Source: a virus (lineage: Duplodnaviria > Heunggongvirae > Uroviricota > Caudoviricetes). Taken from it: a DNA stretch of 19,746 nucleotides. The stretch is taken from positions 1-19,746 of the IMG/VR virus record IMGVR_UViG_2671180921_000033, one strand, 5' to 3'. A program made the position numbers and the translations under genes. Under the pieces are notes generated by a model. The model ran no database searches. It was not told the DNA's origin and worked only from the letters and a program-made list of their open reading frames with translations. Below are positions 1 through 18,325 of this stretch, piece after piece. Position 1 is the stretch's first letter, and the number at the start of each line of letters is the position of its first letter.

Positions 1-312
1 CAGCTCAATTTCATCCATATCGGGAAACTCTGTTTCATCCGGATGAAACTCAAAATCATGCATGAGCTCACGGTATCTTGCGGCCTGAGATTCACACAGC
101 AGCGCATTTCTTGCGGGACGAAGTGTGAGCGCGGTGAAAGCAACAATGATGACCACCAGCCCCTGTAACGCGGTATTACCCACATCTGCCAGAGCAAGCC
201 CACCAGCCAGCGTCAGAATAAAATAAAGCAGATATTCCAGCCTTCGGTACAGGGTCGCCATCATCGTTTCAAGATGAAAGGAATAGCGAACGTCAAACGA
301 CACATTACGCAT
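1..312 (-). CDS. Hypothetical protein, N-terminal 104 codons only (runs off the left edge); hydrophobic stretch suggests a membrane protein
   Basis: ATG at 312 on the minus strand with no stop through position 1. Translation begins MRNVSFDVRYSFHLETMMATLYRRLEYLLYFILTLAGGLALADV. Not in the ORF track because it is truncated. No family recognised. Confidence 0.4.
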   Translation of the reverse strand, partial: MRNVSFDVRYSFHLETMMATLYRRLEYLLYFILTLAGGLALADVGNTALQGLVVIIVAFTALTLRPARNALLCESQAARYRELMHDFEFHPDETEFPDMDEIEL

Positions 313-1333: not shown

Positions 1334-1436
1334 AAATCTCTTTGCCTGATAATGACGACTTGTGAACTCCACTACAAACAAAATGATTCTGCTGAACAGG
1401 CAGTTCCGCACTGTGCATTATAACCTGTTAAGCCAA

Positions 1437-1460
1437 CAAAAAAACCCGCTCGGCGGCGGG
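1437..1460 (-). terminator. Rho-independent terminator after the ORF6N antirepressor-like gene
   Basis: Minus strand CCCGC-CGCCGA-GCGGG followed by TTTTTTTG. Confidence 0.55.
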
Positions 1461-1538
1461 TTTAAGCTGTGTGGCGTAGTAACCACTCTTAACAGGATAT
1501 TCAACTTTTTACGATCGTAAAGCGTTCAGGAAAAATTT

Positions 1539-2099
1539 TTAAAGCCGCATCAGTCGTTCCACCAGCTGATCTTTACGGGCAACGATCCAGCCGCGTTGTT
1601 CCAGATAAAATTTGAACCGTTCCAGAGTGCATACCATCGCATCGGCGGGCACTTTTTCCGCGAAGTCGACCTGACCGTGTTTATCGAAGTGGATCAGTAA
1701 TGCGCATCCATCATTTTCGGTGGGGGAGCTTTGTTTTGCTGGTGGCTGTTTCTGGCTGAAATAACAGTCTTCCAGTTTTTCGAACACTTCCCATGCCTGA
1801 TCGGTTTCGAGCATTTTGGCGTGGCGTGCTGCGCCTCGTTCTGTCCAGAGGACGAGGGAGCGGGCGCGTTTTGCAACTGACTTACTATCTGTAAGCCTGT
1901 TCTTGAATTCTCTTAGCTCCGTACCTTCGATTTTAAAAAAATGCTTACCTTCAATAAACCGCTCCCGATTCCGGGTATGGTTCACCTGAATATTTATAGC
2001 CTCAGTACCATATAGCTGAGCAAGTAGTTCGGTAGTGATAACGGGGATCTGGTTGTGGGTGATTGCAGGAAGAGTGTTGACAGAAATTTGAACAGTCAT
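1539..2099 (-). CDS. Phage antirepressor-like protein, ORF6N/KilA-N-type N-terminal domain plus a C-terminal domain shared with the Rha protein at 14908..15462
   Basis: N-terminus PVITTELLAQLYGTEAINIQVNHTRNRERFIEGKHFFKIEGTELREFKN matches the ORF6N-domain pattern. C-terminus LLIHFDKHGQVDFAEKVPADAMVCTLERFKFYLEQRGWIV parallels LVVHFDEHGNIRFTETVPDGALVCTLDTFRFYLEKQGWTLV in the Rha ORF. SD GAGGTCG precedes the ATG. Confidence 0.75.
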   Translation of the reverse strand: MTVQISVNTLPAITHNQIPVITTELLAQLYGTEAINIQVNHTRNRERFIEGKHFFKIEGTELREFKNRLTDSKSVAKRARSLVLWTERGAARHAKMLETDQAWEVFEKLEDCYFSQKQPPAKQSSPTENDGCALLIHFDKHGQVDFAEKVPADAMVCTLERFKFYLEQRGWIVARKDQLVERLMRL

Positions 2100-2260
2100 A
2101 ACGACCTCGCGTTTCGATAATTTTTACCTCACCACCGTCAGGTTCCAATCATCGGGTGGCGAACTGTGCAGGGTTGGAACTACCGGTCGAAACATCCGGC
2201 GCACCTTTCGGTGCCCCCACACAGTCCACCATAAATCGCGAATGTGACTGTGCTTAGCGC

Positions 2261-2283
2261 ATAAAAAAACCGCCAGCGCGGTT
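2261..2283 (-). terminator. tR'-like intrinsic terminator downstream of the late promoter
   Basis: Minus strand AACCGC-GCTG-GCGGTT followed by TTTTTTTA, about 75 nt downstream of the candidate PR' start. Confidence 0.6.
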
Positions 2284-2343
2284 ATGCACCGTTTCGATAT
2301 CCGGGGTTCCAATCCCGACGCCAGATTTTGCTGACGCGTGAGG

Positions 2344-2373
2344 AATATAGCCCCGGACAATGTGTCTGGTCAA
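2344..2373 (-). promoter_or_regulatory. PR'-like late promoter (candidate Q-utilisation region) immediately downstream of the Q gene
   Basis: Minus strand TTGACC - 17 nt - CTATAT starts 5 nt after the Q stop codon. The position is as in lambdoid PR'/qut/tR' modules. Confidence 0.45.
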
Positions 2374-2377
2374 GCAC

Positions 2378-2764
2378 CTACATAATTCGTTCTACGTATC
2401 TGTCCATCTCCAGCCGGATATCAAGCATCATCAACATGCCATCGATAACCCCTTCCGCTTTCTGCAGGCGCTTGCCAATACAGGTATCCGAACACCCATG
2501 CTTTCGTGCCAGTCCCATAAAAGTCATTCCACCTACGTAATAATCCACCAACAAATCGTGCAAATCCTGATTTTTCTTGTTCAACCGGGCCATACAGCCA
2601 CAAATTATCATTGCATCATTATCAGAACACTGAGGACGTGATTTCACTTTCGGCGGGATTAATCCTTTAAAACCAGCAGCGATTGACGCCCATGACACAT
2701 CTTCGTGGTTGTTTGCAGCCCATGCCCCCCACCGCTCCATCACCTGCTGAATATCACGCACCAT
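2378..2764 (-). CDS. Late-gene antiterminator Q (phage antitermination protein Q family)
   Basis: Translation [61 protein letters not shown]...DIRLEMD closely resembles, from memory, the Q homologues of E. coli cryptic prophages (QuuD-type). ATG at 2764; the ORF-track version starts at the GTG at 2773. Confidence 0.75.
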
Positions 2765-3131
2765 CGTTATCACCTGTAATTTCGTAAACCTTCACACCCA
2801 GCCGACCACCAGGAACGACCTGACCGCGCACTATATTGATTTCATCAAACTGCTCGTCGTCTATGAGTAGTCCTGCATGGGTCAGTGCATCCAGTGGTGC
2901 TTTCAACAGATTGTCCAGGTCACGACGGCGCTTATCCGGTGGCTCCACAATCATCTTTATCGCCAGCCTTCCGGACAGGTTTAATTTCAGCCACTGCTGG
3001 CGAACAATTAGCGCCACATCACGGCGATAACGCTTTCCTGCTTCCGAGATGAAATACGTATTGCCATGACGTCGCCAGTAGGTATTCACCGTCGGCGGGT
3101 AAGGCAAAACAAATTCTATGCGTTCAGTCAT
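2754..3131 (-). CDS. rusA: RusA Holliday-junction resolvase
   Basis: Translation [43 protein letters not shown]...[29 protein letters not shown] carries the RusA hallmark motifs (PP-NxYx[11 protein letters not shown]). Its start abuts the DUF968 stop. Confidence 0.8.
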
Positions 3132-5692: not shown

Positions 5693-5848
5693 TTACTCCT
5701 CAGGTTCGTAAGCTGTGAAGACAGCGACCTCCGTCTGGCCGGTTCGGATTCGTACCTCGCAGAGGTCTTTCCTCGTTACCAGTGCCGTCACAATGACGGT
5801 TAAACAGATGACGATCAGGGCGATTAACATCGCCTTTTGCTGCTTCAT
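5693..5848 (-). CDS. hok: Hok/Gef-family type I toxin
   Basis: Translation MKQQKAMLIALIVICLTVIVTALVTRKDLCEVRIRTGQTEVAVFTAYEPEE (51 aa) has the Hok signature: TM helix then RK-LCE-R-G-EVAAF. SD AAGGAGAAG precedes the ATG. Confidence 0.8.
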   Translation of the reverse strand: MKQQKAMLIALIVICLTVIVTALVTRKDLCEVRIRTGQTEVAVFTAYEPEE

Positions 5849-5894
5849 AGCCTGCTTCTCCTTGCCTTTCGGCACGTAAGAGGCTAACATCCAT
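5700..5894 (-). CDS. mok-like overlapping reading frame (translational coupler for hok)
   Basis: 64-codon frame starting at ATG 5894 and overlapping hok almost entirely, as in hok/mok/sok loci. Start choice within the 107-codon ORF-track frame is uncertain. Confidence 0.35.
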   Translation of the reverse strand: MDVSLLRAERQGEAGYEAAKGDVNRPDRHLFNRHCDGTGNEERPLRGTNPNRPDGGRCLHSLRT

Positions 5895-5965
5895 ATGTCT
5901 AGCATGAAATTGGCCTAAGTTTAATATTAAACGTCTTGCGGGACGCGTAATGTTAACTGGGCTTT
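5895..5965 (+). ncRNA. Possible Sok-like antisense RNA (approximate coordinates)
   Basis: Candidate plus-strand promoter TTGCCT - 17 nt - TAACAT (5862..5890) facing into the hok/mok leader. Ends not defined; inferred from hok/sok architecture. Confidence 0.2.
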
Positions 5966-6245
5966 TCTCTATCTGCCGTTGGTGTTCATGCCCGAGGCAG
6001 ATAGCCTCAAGCACACGCAGCAATTTTACTTAACTATTTTTCCGAAAAATTAATTATTACTAATGCATAGTTTATAAATCACACGATGATATTATAAATC
6101 TAGTGTAAGGGAACATTTAAGTTAAGAATCACATTTTACTAGCCAAAAACATAAAACAGATCTCTTAATAATAAGCAGCTTTTATATAAAAACCACGATG
6201 TGTTTTCATAATAATATGCAGTACCAGCTACTCAGCAATATGAGG

Positions 6246-12268: not shown

Positions 12269-12670
12269 ATGATGAGCGCCCTAGAAGTATCTATGTACAG
12301 AATCAGCAAGCTTCTTCAGGAAACTGGATGGAGCCAGGCTGAGCTTGCCCGTAGAATTGGTGTGACACAACAAACTGTTCAACAATGGGTCAGCGGTAAG
12401 GCTACACCTAAAGCCTCAAGTTTGGATAAACTGGTTGAGGTTTCAGGGCATCCATTGCATTGGTTTTTATTGCCTCCTGAAGAGGGTGAGCAAATTTTCA
12501 CCCCTGACACGATGAAAATTGGTCCTCGCCAACGCGAACTGCTCCAAGCTTTTAGTGCGTTTCCTGAGGAAGACCAAGAAAAAATGCTTCAAGAAATCAA
12601 AGACAAGAAAAAATCAATGGAAGAAACCATTGCTCGGTGGCTGGCTGCACAAAAAAGCCGCCGGGCGTGA
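12269..12670 (+). CDS. XRE-family HTH repressor (PaaR-like; candidate prophage repressor)
   Basis: HTH segment WSQAELARRIGVTQQTVQQWVSGK. First gene of an operon with the antitoxin and toxin below. Start could be the ATG at 12269 or at 12293. Confidence 0.7.
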   Translation: MMSALEVSMYRISKLLQETGWSQAELARRIGVTQQTVQQWVSGKATPKASSLDKLVEVSGHPLHWFLLPPEEGEQIFTPDTMKIGPRQRELLQAFSAFPEEDQEKMLQEIKDKKKSMEETIARWLAAQKSRRA

Positions 12671-12697: not shown

Positions 12698-12889
12698 ATG
12701 GGTACAGCCCTTTCTCCGATAGTTTCAGAATTCGAAACTACCGAACAAGAAAACAGTTACAACGAATGGTTGCGCACTAAAGTAACGTCAAGCCTTGCAG
12801 GCACTCGCCCCGCAATTCCACATGACGAGGTAATGGCTGAAATGGAAAATCTTATTGCTCAAATTGCTGTAACTAACAGGAGCGAGTAA
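12698..12889 (+). CDS. PaaA2-like antitoxin
   Basis: 63 aa, MGTALSPIVSEFETTEQENSYNEWLRTKVTSSLAGTRPAIPHDEV; strong SD AAGAGGAG. Resembles, from memory, the PaaA2 antitoxin of E. coli three-component ParE systems. Confidence 0.65.
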   Translation: MGTALSPIVSEFETTEQENSYNEWLRTKVTSSLAGTRPAIPHDEVMAEMENLIAQIAVTNRSE

Positions 12890-13176
12890 TGTTACCCATT
12901 TTATGGCTACCGTCTGCTCGCGATGATTTGCGTCAGATCATAACTTACATCGCCAAGGAGAACCCACCGGCAGCACGTAGACTAAAAATACGCATTGAAA
13001 CATCGGTATTACCTCTATCTGAGCATCCGTACTTATATCCACCAAGCGAACGGGTTTCTGGATTGAGAGAGATCGTGACCCACCCTAACTACATAATCCT
13101 GTACAGAGTAGCTGCTTCAAGCATTGAGATTGTAAGCGTGACACATTCTCGGCGACAATTTCCCTTCTCTATCTGA
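12889..13176 (+). CDS. ParE/RelE-family toxin
   Basis: 95 aa, MLPILWLPSARDDLRQIITYIAKENPPAARRL...REIVTHPNYIILYRV. Its start overlaps the antitoxin stop by 1 nt (TAATG). Confidence 0.8.
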   Translation: MLPILWLPSARDDLRQIITYIAKENPPAARRLKIRIETSVLPLSEHPYLYPPSERVSGLREIVTHPNYIILYRVAASSIEIVSVTHSRRQFPFSI

Positions 13177-13612: not shown

Positions 13613-13759
13613 ATGAACGAAACAGAATTAAAACACGTTATCGCTCTACTTCTGGAGGATACAAAACGCCTCCAGCAACTGGAACCAAATGCAGGCACTG
13701 AAGCCCGCATCTTGCTGGCATTGCGCGCTATTGAGTCAGGTCGTGATGATGAAGGTTAA
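13613..13759 (+). CDS. Small early-left protein (48 aa)
   Basis: ATG 2 nt after the previous stop. Translation MNETELKHVIALLLEDTKRLQQLEPNAGTEARILLALRAIESGRDDEG. Below the ORF-track cutoff. Confidence 0.3.
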   Translation: MNETELKHVIALLLEDTKRLQQLEPNAGTEARILLALRAIESGRDDEG

Positions 13760-14040
13760 GCATCATCTAAGTTTTTTACATAGCGCCCATTAGATTCGGT
13801 AACAAGAACTCCGGGATTTTTCTTAACTTTTGAGGCCACTGATTCAGCAAGGTTAGCAACAGATTCTTTGTCTTCATTCTTGCTTGAATATGTATATTCG
13901 GCATTAGGAAGTCGGTAGGTGTTCCCTGAAGAGGTTGTAATCGTTCTGGAGAATCCCTTTGCTTCCATTCGTTCATGAAGCTTATCGTAATCAGCGGAAC
14001 TGGAATCGCGAAGTTCGATCCTGACTGTAAATTTTGCCAT
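13756..14040 (-). CDS. Hypothetical protein (94 aa), oppositely oriented moron inside the early-left arm
   Basis: ATG at 14040 preceded by SD GGAGGA. Translation MAKFTVRIELRDSSSADYDKLHERMEAKGFSRTITTSSGNTYRLP... Its 3' end overlaps the convergent plus-strand ORF by 4 nt. Confidence 0.5.
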   Translation of the reverse strand: MAKFTVRIELRDSSSADYDKLHERMEAKGFSRTITTSSGNTYRLPNAEYTYSSKNEDKESVANLAESVASKVKKNPGVLVTESNGRYVKNLDDA

Positions 14041-14626
14041 TTTATCCTCCATTAAGGTTCTGGGTTAGAAATGGAGACCAACACGCTGCTACGTGTGGTC
14101 GTGCGCCGGACACGGATAAGAATCCGGCACTGACAGTTTACTGAAAAGATATATCCCTGAAAAATCAGGGCATAACACGAAAGCGCACGGCGAAGTCCTT
14201 CTCCCTTAGAGCTGTCGTTAAATTTAATTCGACCGTGCGCTTCCGGTTGTGGCAATCCGCGAAATGGCGCGGCGGTAAGTATGGCAGGGGTTATTTCTTT
14301 CTCCTGGTTAGGACGCCGGGTTGTCAGGTTGACCATACGCCTGAGTGACAACCCCGTCACAACATCTCCATGTTTGTTGGTTGGCACCGGGAACTTTGGC
14401 GGAATCAGTTTTTGCTTCGCTACTGCTCTTCCGCCCTTTTTTAAAGTGAATTTTGTGATGCGGTGAATGCGGCTCAGCGCACGCGGAACAGTTAAAAACA
14501 CAAGTGTTATGGGTGAATCATCCGGCGTTAATTGTTAACTGGTTAACGTCACCTGGAGGCACCAGGCACCGCATCAACAAAGTTCACTTCGGTGATGAAA
14601 GGTAGAGAAAATGTTGAATGTAGCTA

Positions 14627-14655
14627 TTGAAAACCTGAACGGGTGGAATTATAGT
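14627..14655 (+). promoter_or_regulatory. Second PR'-like promoter (homologous to the region downstream of Q)
   Basis: TTGAAA - 17 nt - TATAGT. The following roughly 250 bp align in patches with the reverse complement of 2100..2370. Confidence 0.4.
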
Positions 14656-14715
14656 GCATCCGCACCTCATAAAACGGGTGTCGGGCGTGGAAACCCGATG
14701 TTCACTAACGCGCAT

Positions 14716-14739
14716 AACCGCGCTCAGGCGGTTTTTTTA
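14716..14739 (+). terminator. tR'-like intrinsic terminator, second copy
   Basis: AACCGC-GCTCAG-GCGGTT followed by TTTTTTTA; near-identical to the minus-strand terminator at 2261..2283. Confidence 0.6.
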
Positions 14740-14907
14740 TGCGTAATGCACAGCCACATTCAGATTATGGTGGGACGTGCAGGGCAGCCGCAAGGCTGGC
14801 CGGGTTCGTTAGTGACCGGTATTTCCACCCCTGTACGTCTCACCACCCTTATGGTCGTGGAAAACCTTGGTGGTGAGTTAATCAAATTCACTAACGAGGC
14901 TGCTATC

Positions 14908-15462
14908 ATGGCTACTATCCCTACCCTTTCTCACCCTGACGTAACCATCAAAAATGGTCGCGCTGTCACTACGTCTGTTGCGGTTGCAGAGTTCTTCCGC
15001 AAAATGCACAAGGACGTTTTGCGCAAAATTGAAACGCTAGAATGCTCTGAAGATTTTAACGAGCGCAATTTTACGCCCGTTACCTACACCGACGCCAAAG
15101 GCGAAAAACGACCAATGTACCAAATCACCAAAAACGGCTTCGTTTTCCTGGTGATGGGTTTCACCGGCAAAAAAGCCGCCGCATTCAAAGAAGCCTACAT
15201 CGCTGAGTTCGACCGCATGGAGGCAGAGCTGCGTCAGAATAACACCCCGCCCGCTGACAAAATTATTCCGGGTGATGGTCGCACTCTCGTTGTTCACTTC
15301 GACGAACACGGCAACATCAGATTCACCGAAACCGTTCCTGACGGCGCTCTCGTCTGTACCCTGGATACCTTCCGCTTTTATCTGGAGAAACAGGGCTGGA
15401 CTCTTGTTAACCGTAGCGCAATTAAAAATATGACCGTCGAACAGTTGCTGGGTATTAAATAG
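14908..15462 (+). CDS. Rha-family phage regulatory protein (antirepressor)
   Basis: ATG at 14908 with SD GAGG. Translation MATIPTLSHPDVTIKNGRAVTTSVAVAEFFRKMHKDVLRKIETL...FNERNFTPVTY...ITKNGFVFLVMGFTGKKAAAFKEAYIAEF matches the Rha pattern. The ORF-track 5' extension to 14611 runs through a promoter and terminator and is rejected. Confidence 0.85.
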   Translation: MATIPTLSHPDVTIKNGRAVTTSVAVAEFFRKMHKDVLRKIETLECSEDFNERNFTPVTYTDAKGEKRPMYQITKNGFVFLVMGFTGKKAAAFKEAYIAEFDRMEAELRQNNTPPADKIIPGDGRTLVVHFDEHGNIRFTETVPDGALVCTLDTFRFYLEKQGWTLVNRSAIKNMTVEQLLGIK

Positions 15463-15508
15463 TTTTCCGGGATTTTCTTAATACGACAAATTCATTAAGG
15501 AGATAATT

Positions 15509-15730
15509 ATGATTGCTCATCACTTCGGAACCGATGAAATACCGCGTCAGTGTGTAACGCCCGGTGATTACGTTATGTATCAGGGAAGAACGTATGTTGC
15601 ATCTGTCAATGAAATCAAAAAACACCGGCTTTATATCCGGGGATTCTGCACTCAGCATTGCATTAAGGACACCATGATTAAGGTCTTCCTCGGTCGTGAC
15701 GGATTGCCCGCAAAAGCGGAATCATGGTGA
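15509..15730 (+). CDS. Small protein (73 aa) at the position and size of Rac KilR
   Basis: Strong SD AAGGAG 6 nt upstream of the ATG. Translation [32 protein letters not shown]... The KilR-like call rests on size and synteny, not on a verified alignment. Confidence 0.45.
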
Positions 15731-15871: not shown

Positions 15872-18325
15872 ATGAACGCTGATAATAAAGAAATTGCACT
15901 ATATTACGAAGCCAAAAATGACAAAGTCAGAAAACGCCTTGGAATTAAAGGCGGTTTTTGCTGGCGCACAGCAAAAAAATTATCGGTTGCAATATCACAC
16001 GGTATTGTCGCAATGGACGATGCCGGATTTGACGAAGAGGATTTTAAAAAACCCGTCCGCGTCCATTTACCCGTTGTGAATGACCTTCCTCCGGAAGGCG
16101 TGTTTGATACCGAATTCTGCAACCGATACGAAAAAGGCGGGGAAGATGGTATCACAATGGTACTTATCGCACCCTCGCCCTCTGTTCAGGACAAACCAGC
16201 CAGCACTGACAATACCAACGTCAACGGCGAAGACATGACTGAGATTGAGGACAATATGCTTCTGCCGGTTTCAGGTCAGATTCTGCCTGTTCGATGGCTG
16301 GCACAGCACGGCAGCGAAAAACCGGTCACGCACGTTTCACGGGACGAGCTGCGCGCATTACATAACGCACAGGAAGAAAAACTTCCCACTGTTACCGTGC
16401 TGGCCATCTCAAATAAAGCAGTGCAACTCGAACCGCTGGAGATTCGGGATTTGTACAAACTGGTGCGGGACACTGACAAGGTTTTTCCCGCCCCCGTAAA
16501 TTCAGACCTGGGGTTTATGACCGCCTTCATCGAAGCATACCTGGACGCTGACTACACCGATCGCGGTCTGCTTACAAAAGAGTGGATGAAGGGAAATCGT
16601 GTTTCGCGCATCAGCCGCACACCATCCGGCGCTAACGCTGGCGGCGGTATTCTTACCGATCGCGGCGAAGGTTTTGTACACGATAGTGCATCACTGGCGC
16701 GCGACGTAGCCACTGGCGTGCTGACCCGCTCAATGGACGTGGACATTTACAATCTTCATCCCGCGCACGCTAAACGCATTGAGGAAATTGTCGCTGAAAA
16801 TAAACCTCCCTTTTCTGTGTTTTTCAGCAAATTCATCACCATGCCTGGCGGGATGGACTATTCCCGCGCCATCGTGGTTGCCTCCGTGAAAGAAGCACCG
16901 GTTGGTATAGAGGCTATGCCCCACCGCGTCACCGAATATCTGAATAAAGTGCTGACCGAAACCGATCATGCCAACCCTGATCCGGAAATCGTGGATATTG
17001 CCTGCGGTCGCTCCTCCGCCCCGATGCCGCAGCGTGTAACAGAAGAAGAAAAACAGGATGATGAAGAAAAACCGCAACCATCTGGTGCAATGGCAGATGA
17101 ACAGGCAACGGCTGAAGCAATGGAGCCGGATACAACTGAACATCGCCAGAACACGCAATCGCTTGATGCTCAGGCACAGGTAAATTCTGTTGATGCGAAA
17201 TATCAGGAACTGCGGGCAGAACTCCATGAAGCCCGGAAAAACATTCCATCAAAAAATCCTGTCGATGCCGATAAATTGCTTGCTGCATCACGTGGTGAAT
17301 TTGTTGAGGGGATTAGCGACCCGAACGATCCGAAATGGGTGAAGGGGATTGCAACACACGATACTGTGAACCAGTGCCAGCAAGAATCGGAACAGAACGA
17401 CCAGAAAGCGGGACAAAACAGCCCGGATGCGCAACAAAACGAGCCAGAAGCGATACATCCGGAGCCGGAAGCGCAACACGTGCAGGAAAAACCATGTAAT
17501 GCTTGCGGGAAACATGGCGGCGGCAACTGCCCTGACTGTGGCACAGTGATGGGTGACGCAACACACCAGGAAATGTTCAATGAAGAGAATCAGCCTGAAG
17601 TTCAGGAAAATAATCCGGAGGAAATGGAAGGCTCTGCGCATCAGCACAAGGAGAACTCTGGTGGCAATCAGCATCATGCCAGCGATAGTGAAACTGGCGA
17701 GACGGCAAATCCCTTAATTAAGGTGACTGGTCATCATAAATATAAGTCCACCAGCAAAACGTGGTATCACCTGATGATCGACCTTGAGACGATGGGAACC
17801 AACACCAATGCGCCCATCGTGGTTATTGGGGCGGTTTTCTTCGACCCGCAGACAGGGAAAATCGGGCCGGTATTTTATATCGTTATCAGTCTGACTGACG
17901 CAATGAATACAGGAGCTGTTCCTGACGGTGGAACCATCGAATGGTGGCTGAAGCAGTCCAGTGAAGCCAGAGCTGCCATTTTAACAGACCAGGTGAAACT
18001 GAAAGATGCCCTTTTGCGCTTTCGGGAATTCGTCAATGAACACTCTGATGAAAAATTCGTTCAGGTGTGGGGGAATGGTGCAACGTTCGATAACTCAATT
18101 TTGCGCACCTCATACGAACGCCTGGGCATCCCCTGCCCGTGGCATTACAGCAACGATCGTGATGTACGCACGATCGTTGAGCTGGGGAAAACCATAGACT
18201 TCAATGCCAGAAGCGTAATTCCATTCGAAGGCGTACCCCACAATGCGCTGGATGACGCCCTTCACCAGGCAAAATACGTTACAGCCACTATTCAAAAACT
18301 GATCCCGAGTCAGGCTGATTTTTAA
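15872..18325 (+). CDS. RecE-like large protein whose C-terminal domain is a DEDDh 3'-5' exonuclease (817 aa)
   Basis: N-terminal two-thirds resemble, from memory, the Rac RecE N-terminal region (for example [50 protein letters not shown]). The last roughly 190 aa carry DEDDh motifs [20 protein letters not shown] and [12 protein letters not shown]. Confidence 0.7.

Follow-up and report, generated by a model that had tools for sequence, protein, structure and literature searches.

What is the element that stands before two antirepressor-like genes of this prophage, one on each strand? In the window (by which we mean the whole 19,746-nt stretch of DNA that was analysed) a module at 14611-14907 on the plus strand, here called copy A, belongs to the leftward early region, where it stands upstream of rha and at a great distance from the antiterminator gene Q. 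It resembles the reverse complement of 2100-2377, copy B, which starts 5 nt past the Q stop codon (2378) and lies between Q (2773-2378) and ant (2099-1539), the position that isrK holds in Gifsy-1; this is not so for copy A. A first-pass annotation took both copies for late modules of the PR'/tR' type, in which a promoter and terminator yield a 6S-like short RNA and Q reads through a conserved leader into the antirepressor genes. We find that each copy consists of an IsrK/c4-a1b1 short RNA with its terminator, followed by a C4 RNA and then by an antirepressor-type gene.

Two copies of one RNA module

When 14611-14907(+) is aligned globally with the reverse complement of 2100-2377, the two agree in 216 of 313 columns (69%), 51 columns contain gaps, and the score is 82, compared with -33 +/- 7 for 300 dinucleotide shuffles (z = 16); a MAFFT alignment of the two copies was also viewed. 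Identity varies from part to part, being 52% in the promoter, 65% in the IsrK body, 91% in the terminator, 75% in C4 and 63% in the stretch that carries a2, b2 and the ribosome-binding site. The first-pass annotation was right that this is patchy homology at the nucleotide level, following no reading frame (the indels have lengths that are not multiples of three), that each copy has a promoter, with sigma-70-like hexamers, and that the terminator, GCATAACCGCGCT..GGCGGTTTTTTTATGCG in both, is near-identical.

The features of the two copies are collected in Table 1. Both C4 matches (RF01695) are full-length and exceed the gathering score of 45 bits, and both isrK matches (RF01394) exceed that of 50. 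For the third family, c4-a1b1 (RF03163, gathering score 46.7), copy B is above the threshold, with 47.8 bits at 2350-2298(-), and copy A below it, with 23.3 bits (E 9e-4) at 14649-14701(+), the hairpins of c4-a1b1 type and the a1/b1 positions of copy A being the same as in copy B. The transcription start predicted for copy A, at about 14662, coincides with the first position of its Rfam isrK match. Both C4 leaders fold stably, with minimum free energies of -48.4 kcal/mol for copy A (z -5.1) and -44.6 kcal/mol for copy B (z -4.5); these folds are the Rfam consensus, with GNRA hairpin loops GCAA in A and GAAA in B, and compensatory changes occur at nine C4 stem pairs among 27 diverse relatives. 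The IsrK parts fold no better than their shuffles (z -0.9). We identify the conserved leader as a C4 antisense RNA, and the short transcript as an IsrK/c4-a1b1 RNA, with the RNAs themselves, their ends and their ratio being predictions. The duplicated short terminated transcript proposed earlier is thus predicted in each copy, and it is its identity that changes, from 6S-like to IsrK/c4-a1b1.

Table 1. Features of the two cassettes and of the Q-late promoter region (window coordinates)
Feature	Position	Strand	Description
Copy A promoter	14627..14655	+	TTGAAA 14627-14632, 17-nt spacer, TATAGT 14650-14655
Copy A IsrK-like short RNA (c4-a1b1 equivalent)	14662..14738	+	Two hairpins; Rfam isrK 63.6 bits
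Copy A a1	14687-14693	+	GTGGAAA; in loop of IsrK hairpin 2
Copy A b1	14702-14710	+	TCACTAACG; between IsrK hairpin 2 and terminator
Copy A intrinsic terminator	14716-14738	+	AACCGC/GCGGTT, then seven T
Copy A C4 antisense RNA	14763..14850	+	Rfam C4 80.3 bits
Copy A C4 closing stem	14768-14845	+	Long; holds GCAA-capped hairpin and second hairpin
Copy A b'	14807-14815	+	CGUUAGUGA; loop of second C4 hairpin
Copy A b', longer form	14806-14815	+	UCGUUAGUGA; pairs with b2
Copy A a'	14822-14828	+	UUUCCAC; 3' junction of C4
Copy A a2	14857-14863	+	GTGGAAA; exact complement of a'
Copy A b2	14888-14897	+	TCACTAACGA; exact complement of b'; overlaps rha Shine-Dalgarno
rha Shine-Dalgarno	14896-14899	+	GAGG; overlapped by b2
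rha	14908..15462	+	Rha-family regulator/antirepressor candidate, 184 aa; Pfam Phage_pRha (PF09669)
Copy B promoter	2344..2373	-	TTGACC 2373-2368, 18-nt spacer, TATATT 2349-2344; 10/12 matches (promoter scan)
Copy B IsrK-like short RNA	2263..2337	-	Rfam isrK 74.9 bits, match from 2337
Copy B a1	2312-2306	-	TTGGAAC; in IsrK-like RNA
Copy B b1	2297-2291	-	TCGAAAC; in IsrK-like RNA
Copy B terminator	2283-2263	-	Terminator scan
Copy B C4 antisense RNA	2152..2236	-	Rfam C4 73.9 bits; hairpin 1 with GAAA loop
Copy B b'	2193-2187	-	GUUUCGA; C4 segment
Copy B a'	2180-2174	-	GUUCCAA; C4 segment
Copy B a2	2148-2142	-	TTGGAAC; exact complement of copy B a'
Copy B b2	2117-2111	-	TCGAAAC; exact complement of copy B b'; abuts Shine-Dalgarno
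Copy B Shine-Dalgarno	2108-2105	-	GAGG; 3' of b2
ant	1539..2099	-	ORF6N-domain antirepressor candidate, 186 aa; Pfam ORF6N
Q antiterminator gene (Q21/933W family)	2378..2773	-	Pfam PF06530 6e-52
Late promoter region, 933W pR'-qut-tR' homologue	1436..1521	-	82.6% over 86 nt to 933W 20666-20750
Late promoter terminator hairpin	1463-1442	-	Terminator scan

Complementarity of C4 loops with their targets

Exact-complement scans show that within each copy the b' and a' segments of C4 have exact complements of 7-10 nt at exactly two places each, a1 and b1 upstream and a2 and b2 downstream, with b2 overlapping the GAGG in copy A and abutting it in copy B. Between the copies, the same scans found no complement of at least 6 nt to the other copy's loops at any target site. 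We propose from these different a' and b' sequences that each RNA addresses mainly its own gene; in view of the UUCCA core common to the a' segments of both copies, some degree of cross-talk may occur at the a sites. Duplexes computed between whole RNAs with RNAduplex were uninformative, as this unfolds the structures, and were replaced by the exact-complement scans and by loop-only duplexes, in which the a' comparison is blurred by flanking stem bases.

The same arrangement recurs in relatives. A set of 91 unique related modules, taken from viral contigs, contains 17 a' loops and 37 b' loops in 50 combinations, and these co-vary with their targets: cognate complements of at least 7 nt stand at the expected positions in 84% (a1), 71% (b1), 100% (a2) and 89% (b2), compared with 1-5% for non-cognate loop/target pairs. 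The a2 site lies at +6..9 after C4 and the b2 site at +34..40. Promoter hexamers with a 17/18-nt spacer occur at a fixed offset in 90 of the 91 modules and a T-run terminator in 88, and the genes downstream are of the Rha, ORF6N-Ant or Bro-N types.

The downstream genes and the leader as a reading frame

Both genes were described earlier as antirepressor-like, and homology is in keeping with this. Rha matches Phage_pRha (2e-31, residues 21-105) and PHROG families of transcriptional regulators and anti-repressors; Ant matches ORF6N (3e-21) and the anti-repressor family phrog_2379 (3e-89), has 55-60% identity to the protein encoded after isrK in Gifsy-like loci, and is a homologue of Gifsy-1 AnrP. 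The two differ in their N-terminal domains (Rha and ORF6N) and have a common C-terminal domain, with 41% identity between the last 85 residues of Ant and the C-terminal end of Rha in the window. Both are therefore candidate antirepressors of the prophage's own repressor, a 133-aa protein encoded at 12269-12670, in which a helix-turn-helix domain is the only one found and no cleavage domain is matched. The gene that follows rha encodes a Kil-type protein, not DicB; PGAP annotates a 'DicB fragment' in a related genome.

Could the leader instead be protein, an 'Ash'-type N-terminal extension of Rha, with the nucleotide similarity of the copies reflecting a common domain? Position 14611 is the ATG of a 283-aa ORF (14611-15462) that runs unbroken and in frame into rha, and public annotation of rha often begins there, taking in the RNA leader; PGAP has a 284-aa version in a relative. 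Translated, 14611-14907 scores 56.4 bits against Phage_ASH (PF10554; cut-off 26), the first 99 residues matching at 5e-15, and positions 1-99 of phrog_995 match at 2e-44. In 55 of 85 related modules no stop interrupts the frame that leads from the C4-stem AUG into the downstream gene, and in Gifsy-1 a small ORF at this place is translated and needed for anrP expression (PMC4825925).

Nevertheless we consider it improbable that the leader is conserved as protein. The ATG of the long ORF (14611) precedes even the -35 hexamer of the cassette, and an intrinsic terminator falls within the ORF. Differences among 21 distinct leaders show no excess at third codon positions (1995/1852/2131), although the control set, taken from codons 1-47 of the downstream genes, shows only a weak bias too, since these genes have diverged strongly. 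In copy B, where the indels break the frame, the ORF from the equivalent AUG has 27 codons and stops 49 nt before ant, and the longest leader ORF matches no Pfam family. The leader varies at precisely the loops and target sites, which co-vary as RNA pairs. The conservation is at the level of RNA, as first proposed, and PGAP, Pfam Phage_ASH and PHROG 995 make a systematic annotation error in treating an RNA leader as protein.

Q and the late promoter

The proposal that both copies are PR'/tR'-type late modules, with a 6S-like short RNA and terminators through which Q reads to express the antirepressors, draws on the setting of copy B. Immediately past the Q stop codon come a promoter and, about 75 nt on, an intrinsic terminator, much as in lambda PR'-6S-tR', and in Gifsy-1 an equal arrangement comes after antQ (PMC4825925). 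However, the late promoter of the prophage is not at the repeat. The window's Q is 79-82% identical in amino acid sequence to the Q of 933W and of Stx phages, and the homologue of the cognate 933W unit, where 20666-20750 is annotated as pR', qut and terminator, lies at 1521-1436(-), downstream of ant and outside the repeated module; the 933W unit gives no alignment with copy A or copy B. Copy B is thus an inserted cassette that separates Q from PR'. A search for direct repeats on either side of copy A, as scars of insertion, turned up nothing convincing.

Other evidence points the same way. Identity between the A and B promoter regions is only 52%, and copy A is remote from Q. The Q gene that the cassette follows is of the PF06530 family here but of the unrelated PF06323 family in Gifsy-like loci, and the majority of relatives have no Q as neighbour. 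C4 and its targets, moreover, account fully for the conserved leader. We therefore regard a PR'/tR' identity as very unlikely, a plausible misreading that is here corrected, and nothing points to Q-dependent readthrough; to judge from the sequence, it is antisense RNA, and not Q, that gates the antirepressors. The similarity extends well beyond the terminator, and although that is the best-matching segment, at 91%, the idea that the copies have in common a terminator hairpin and chance alone is practically untenable given the whole-region z of 16, the 75% identity of C4 and the separate Rfam matches of each copy (E<=1e-11).

SOS-type control is known for Gifsy antirepressors. A search for LexA boxes (CTGT-N8-ACAG, one mismatch) gave 5 matches where 5.7 are expected, none at either promoter, and the sequence thus gives no sign of such control at either cassette.

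Proposed regulation

Since the conserved leader is C4 and the short transcript IsrK/c4-a1b1, control would be by RNA-RNA pairing, as in P1 immI and Gifsy-1 isrK. Family membership, folds, promoter and terminator, exact loop-target complementarity and co-variation in relatives, all demonstrated here, lead us to put at about 85% the probability that the prophage holds two self-contained cassettes of this type, with different RNA addresses, that keep antirepressors silent.

Each cassette has its own sigma-70 promoter, followed in order by the IsrK-like RNA and terminator, C4, the a2/b2 sites at the ribosome-binding site, and the antirepressor-type gene. By analogy with experiments in P1 and Gifsy-1, on which the processing, the translational block, the decoy action and the target of the antirepressor are modelled, the majority of transcripts would end at the terminator to give an IsrK RNA of about 77 nt, and those that read through would carry C4. 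Pairing of the b' loop and a' junction of C4 with b2 and a2 would occlude the Shine-Dalgarno sequence and leave the antirepressor untranslated. The a1 and b1 sites of IsrK would serve as a decoy to which those C4 segments could bind, both in cis, within the long transcript, and in trans, on the short RNA, so that a rise in IsrK relative to C4 would free the ribosome-binding site; antirepressor would then be made and would inactivate the prophage repressor. In P1, C4 is excised from the primary transcript by RNase P.

The decoy idea was proposed earlier for a1/b1 of P1 (supplement of PMC2864571). In Gifsy-1, translation of anrP rises more than 100-fold when short IsrK is supplied in trans, and a helix is verified by the compensatory mutants G28A/C162U and G31A/C159U (PMC4825925). 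When a Gifsy-like locus is numbered from its start site, all 11 mutated residues are reproduced, G28 and G31 falling in a1 and C159 and C162 in a'; by this numbering, the experimentally verified Gifsy-1 helix is the a1:a' pairing. This joins the P1 c4 and Salmonella IsrK literatures, which a recent review still keeps as separate systems. The Gifsy-1 authors themselves attribute activation not to titration of free C4 but to a long mRNA that refolds and to translation of the small ORF orf45, which passes through the C4 region (PMC4825925). In copy A the ORF from the C4-stem AUG (14767) is open into rha, where it would yield a 231-aa isoform, and most Rha-type modules have such an open frame.

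These features allow a more speculative extension, on which the odds seem to us clearly adverse: that the two cassettes form parallel RNA-addressed switches, in which a combinatorial a'/b' code separates or partly couples co-resident prophages, and in which C4 folding and translation of an N-extended Rha are mutually exclusive. The address space comprises at least 17 x 37 variants of a' and b', with neighbouring modules often sharing one of the two loops. The literature searched yielded no systematic description of such a code or of the in-frame fusion, and a search for 'c4 antisense RNA' with 'prophage' gave nothing on lambdoid Rha cassettes. Cassettes of this kind are frequent in E. coli and Stx phages; antirepressor control there has a bearing on the induction of prophages and the release of toxin.

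Comparison with known systems

With the lambdoid PR'-qut-tR' units (lambda 6S RNA; 933W pR') the modules have in common a promoter, an intrinsic terminator within about 80 nt and a short RNA, and copy B lies just past Q. They differ in carrying C4 and its targets, which PR' units lack, and they show no similarity to the window's own unit at 1521-1436(-). Phage P4 immunity (CI RNA, with seqA and seqB-seqC) is alike in that a small RNA processed from the leader pairs with repeated sites on either side of it. In P4, CI terminates transcription of replication genes prematurely, and such genes or sites are not evident here. SeqA has been named a structural homologue of IsrK by the Gifsy-1 authors (PMC4825925).

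The modules closely resemble isrK-orf45/STnc1160-anrP of Gifsy-1 (Hershko-Shalev et al. 2016, PMC4825925), with the same order of promoter, IsrK and terminator, C4-type RNA (the STnc1160/orf45 region) and antirepressor gene. Hfq binding of isrK and trans-activation of antirepressor translation have been shown for Gifsy-1 only (PMC4825925). Copy B follows a Q gene directly, as there, and encodes the Gifsy-like AnrP relative described above. The addresses differ, b' and a' being UCGGUGAU and ACGCCAA in the Gifsy-like locus and GUUUCGA and GUUCCAA in copy B, as do the Q families, and the ORF from the C4 AUG has 45 codons in Gifsy-1 and 27 in copy B, whereas that of copy A is fused to rha. Unlike the Gifsy-1 locus, copy A is in the leftward early region, before a Rha gene.

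In immI of P1 and P7, as Citron and Schuster reportedly described in 1990, a c4 antisense RNA with a1 b1 and a2 b2 sites controls icd-ant. The present modules resemble it in the C4 fold, in the two single-stranded segments complementary to sites before and after c4, in the downstream site at the ribosome-binding site and, probably, in the control of an antirepressor gene, here a candidate by homology; loop sequence would set specificity, as is said of P1/P7 heteroimmunity. There are differences, however. The host element is a lambdoid prophage here and a plasmid prophage in P1, an intrinsic terminator between b1 and C4 gives a separate short a1b1 RNA, and no icd-like gene lies between C4 and the antirepressor, b2 standing directly before the Shine-Dalgarno sequence and ATG of rha or ant. 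We conclude that the module would operate as immI does without being an immI operon, and that it is no new kind of system, but an ordinary, widespread and poorly annotated element.

Identity of the repeated element

The first-pass annotation had described the region ahead of rha, 14611-14907(+) (here copy A), as a second copy of the reverse complement of 2100-2377 (copy B), which lies between Q and ant. Alignment of exactly these coordinates bears this out, with 69% identity over 313 columns and a score 16 standard deviations above dinucleotide shuffles; a MAFFT view was also made. Identity is 91% in the terminator, 75% in the structured leader (C4), 65% in the body of the first RNA (IsrK), 63% in the segment ahead of the start codon and 52% in the promoter segment. 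The quoted terminator and the sigma-70-like hexamers are present as described, as are the antirepressor-like genes downstream, which encode a Rha-family protein (copy A) and an ORF6N protein, Ant (copy B; PHROGs anti-repressor).

What kind of element is this? Scanning of the window against Rfam at the curated gathering thresholds (isrK 50, C4 45 and c4-a1b1 46.7 bits) identifies the same two elements in both copies, first an isrK RNA and then a C4 antisense RNA. The earlier reading of the leader as an RNA element was thus right, the gaps in the alignment also not being multiples of three. Both C4 sequences adopt the family structure, a long stem around a GNRA-capped hairpin plus a second hairpin, and folding gives z-scores of -5.1 and -4.5 for the two copies. 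Compensatory changes are found at nine C4 stem pairs among 27 diverse relatives. We conclude that the repeat is genuine and that the element belongs to a known, widespread kind.

Features of the two copies and of other regions of the window
Feature	Copy	Position	Strand	Remarks
isrK	A	14662-14738	+	63.6 bits
isrK	B	2337-2263	-	74.9 bits
C4	A	14763-14850	+	80.3 bits
C4	B	2236-2152	-	73.9 bits
c4-a1b1	A	14649-14701	+	23.3 bits, E 9e-4; below gathering threshold
c4-a1b1	B	2350-2298	-	47.8 bits
a1	A	14687-14693	+	
a1	B	2312-2306	-	
b1	A	14702-14710	+	
b1	B	2297-2291	-	
b' (hairpin-2 loop)	A			CGUUAGUGA
b' (hairpin-2 loop)	B			GUUUCGA
a' (3' junction)	A			UUUCCAC
a' (3' junction)	B			GUUCCAA
a2	A	14857-14863	+	
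a2	B	2148-2142	-	
b2	A	14888-14897	+	overlaps SD GAGG
b2	B	2117-2111	-	then SD GAGG at 2108-2105
Late promoter terminator hairpin		1463-1442	-	
CI/DicA-like repressor		12269-12670	+	133 aa, HTH domain only
sok antisense RNA		5843-6016	-	Rfam 95 bits; overlaps hok-type ORF (5693-5905)
RelB/RelE-like pair		12698-13176	+	named by position and a related genome's annotation
GhoS-like ORF		13756-14052	-	weak Pfam match, 2e-4

Predicted pairing between loops and targets

In the C4 RNA of phage P1, the single-stranded segments a' and b' pair with a1 and b1 upstream and with a2 and b2 downstream, the downstream site lying at a ribosome-binding site. Both copies have this same layout. Within each copy no target site carries a complement of at least 6 nt to the loops of the other copy. 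Since the address segments (the a' and b' loop sequences) differ between the copies and change with their own targets, the patches in which the copies had been seen to align represent a conserved scaffold broken by specificity segments. The b' segments discriminate well; the a' segments have a UUCCA core in common. We infer that the two circuits are independent. Two points of modest interest are the presence of two different addresses in one prophage and how large the address repertoire is.

The gene after rha encodes a Kil-type septation inhibitor (15509-15730). Its ribosome-binding region, at 15487-15517(+), is CAAATTCATTAAGGAG and resembles the b2 and SD stretch of rha, CAAATTCACTAACGAGG. 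It could form a weak duplex with the b' loop of the copy A C4 (one mismatch and one G-U pair, roughly -9.5 kcal/mol); no a2-like site was found near this region.

Related modules

A degenerate C4-scaffold pattern with the loops left free, run over viral contigs, yielded 91 unique complete modules. Among them 17 a' and 37 b' sequences occur, combined in 50 ways. Target positions are fixed, a1 and b1 lying ~78 and ~62 nt upstream of C4, and a2 and b2 at +6 to +9 and +34 to +40 downstream. Cognate complements of at least 7 nt occur for a1 in 84% of the modules, b1 in 71%, a2 in 100% and b2 in 89%, compared with 1-5% for non-cognate pairs, in which the loop is a different one. Promoter hexamers stand at a fixed offset in 90 of the 91, and a T-run terminator separates b1 from C4 in 88. 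Family membership, folds, signals, complementarity and co-variation are what the analysis shows. The downstream genes are mostly of Rha type, the rest encoding ORF6N-Ant, Bro-N or small proteins.

Five fetched loci (L015, L094, L098, L103 and L116) have two C4 modules each, 0.7-2.6 kb apart. The addresses always differ within a pair, with one loop in common in four of the five: b' is the same and a' different in L094 and L116, and the reverse holds in L098 and L103. This suggests a stepwise diversification of addresses, with one loop changing before the other. Related modules are also present in many Stx1 and Stx2 phages (for example PA11 17136-17389 and Stx2 II 49023-49276), in a region mostly unannotated or labelled 'hypothetical' or 'NinE', and many Stx2a phage records have two matching places. 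Of 5426 complete E. coli genomes, 4665 have sequences similar to a 1.1-kb query comprising the copy A leader and rha, and 394 of these 4665 contain most of the query.

Is the leader a protein-coding region?

Public annotation treats 14611-14907 as protein, the N-terminal part of a long Rha ORF. Position 14611 is the ATG of a 283-aa ORF that reaches the Rha start (14908) in the same frame; in a related genome (L001, 14219-15073) PGAP has the long ORF, leader included, as a 284-aa 'Rha family protein' CDS; and the translated leader matches Pfam Phage_ASH (PF10554) at 5e-15 and corresponds to positions 1-99 of phrog_995. However, this ATG lies upstream of the cassette's own promoter and an intrinsic terminator falls within the leader ORF. 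Differences among 21 distinct leaders are evenly spread over codon positions, with no codon-position bias found over the leader, and copy B is not collinear in frame, its leader ORF matching no family. Some entries of Phage_ASH and phrog_995 are probably RNA genes in translation. That public resources systematically annotate IsrK/C4 RNA as protein is itself of modest interest.

Within the 5' strand of the C4 stem lies an AUG (position 14767 in copy A). In 55 of 85 modules its frame continues uninterrupted into the gene that follows; copy A is among them (14767-15462(+), 231 aa altogether), and the copy B frame ends after 27 codons. In Gifsy-1, translation of the small ORF that corresponds to this frame is of importance (PMC4825925).

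Relation to Q and the late promoter

The Q encoded in the window is a member of the Q21/933W family (PF06530; family name from bioRxiv 10.1101/651190), with 79-82% identity to the Q proteins of 933W and related Stx phages. The 933W record has pR', qut and the first terminator annotated directly after Q, and this 86-nt pR'-qut-tR' stretch aligns at 82.6% identity with 1521-1436(-) of the window, just past the end of the Ant gene. Judged by this homology, 1521-1436(-) is the real late promoter region. Direct comparison found no similarity of copy B to the 933W stretch, and the earlier interpretation of the repeat as a PR'/tR' unit with Q-dependent readthrough is rejected; nothing suggests Q loading at the cassette promoters. 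Gifsy-like loci have the same cassette behind a Q from an unrelated family, PF06323. In other relatives the upstream neighbour is an integrase, a Dam methylase or a further Rha gene, or there is no recognisable one. With the pR' homologue elsewhere, and with differing Q families and neighbours, the cassette is a self-contained insert, which this prophage has at two places, between Q and PR' and in the leftward early region.

The late promoter region is followed by a PemK/MazF-like gene (1411-932), tRNA-Thr (537-462) and tRNA-Gly (458-384). Stx phages carry tRNAs and stx at the position after the late promoter unit. Elsewhere, within the nin-like region, the sok RNA and the hok-type ORF together form a type I toxin-antitoxin system, and an unassigned 149-aa ORF (14052-14501) adjoins the GhoS-like ORF just upstream of copy A.

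A proposed switch

By analogy with P1 and Gifsy-1, from which processing, translational block and decoy action are carried over, each cassette promoter would give mostly the short IsrK RNA. Read-through RNA would carry C4, and a':a2 and b':b2 pairing would mask the ribosome-binding site of the antirepressor gene. IsrK would act as a decoy through a1 and b1, its excess freeing this site, and the antirepressor would then inactivate the prophage repressor. The repressor gave no match to a LexA-type cleavage domain or peptidase S24, and the search for LexA boxes found none at the promoters of the cassettes; an HTH-only protein of this size fits antirepressor-dependent, rather than RecA-cleavage, induction. 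The putative antirepressors, Rha (14908-15462(+)) and the ORF6N protein (1539-2099(-)), have unrelated N-terminal domains and a C-terminal region of about 85 aa in common (41% identity; phrog_25059), which may be where contact with the repressor is made.

Comparison with P1 and Gifsy-1

A passage in the supplement of PMC2864571 proposes P1 a1 b1 as competitors of a2 b2. In the Gifsy-1 antQ-isrK-orf45-anrP locus, the isrK promoter gives a short terminated RNA and a translationally silent read-through mRNA, and anrP translation rises more than 100-fold with short IsrK in trans (PMC4825925). The same study used compensatory mutants (G28A/C162U and G31A/C159U) to verify that IsrK forms a helix with the 'orf45' region, and described STnc1160, a stable RNA processed from that region. 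When a Gifsy-like locus of our viral set (L005) is numbered from its predicted start, all eleven residues named there are matched; G28 and G31 fall within the a1 loop (UUGGCGU), and a' (ACGCCAA) contains C159 and C162. The verified helix is thus the a1:a' pairing of the C4 scheme, which connects the P1 c4 and IsrK literatures, a modest point of interest. Between the ORF6N protein of the window and the one encoded downstream of Gifsy-like loci, identity is 55-60%. Copy B thus corresponds to the Gifsy-1 locus, differing in its RNA address. Copy A is the same cassette placed ahead of rha.
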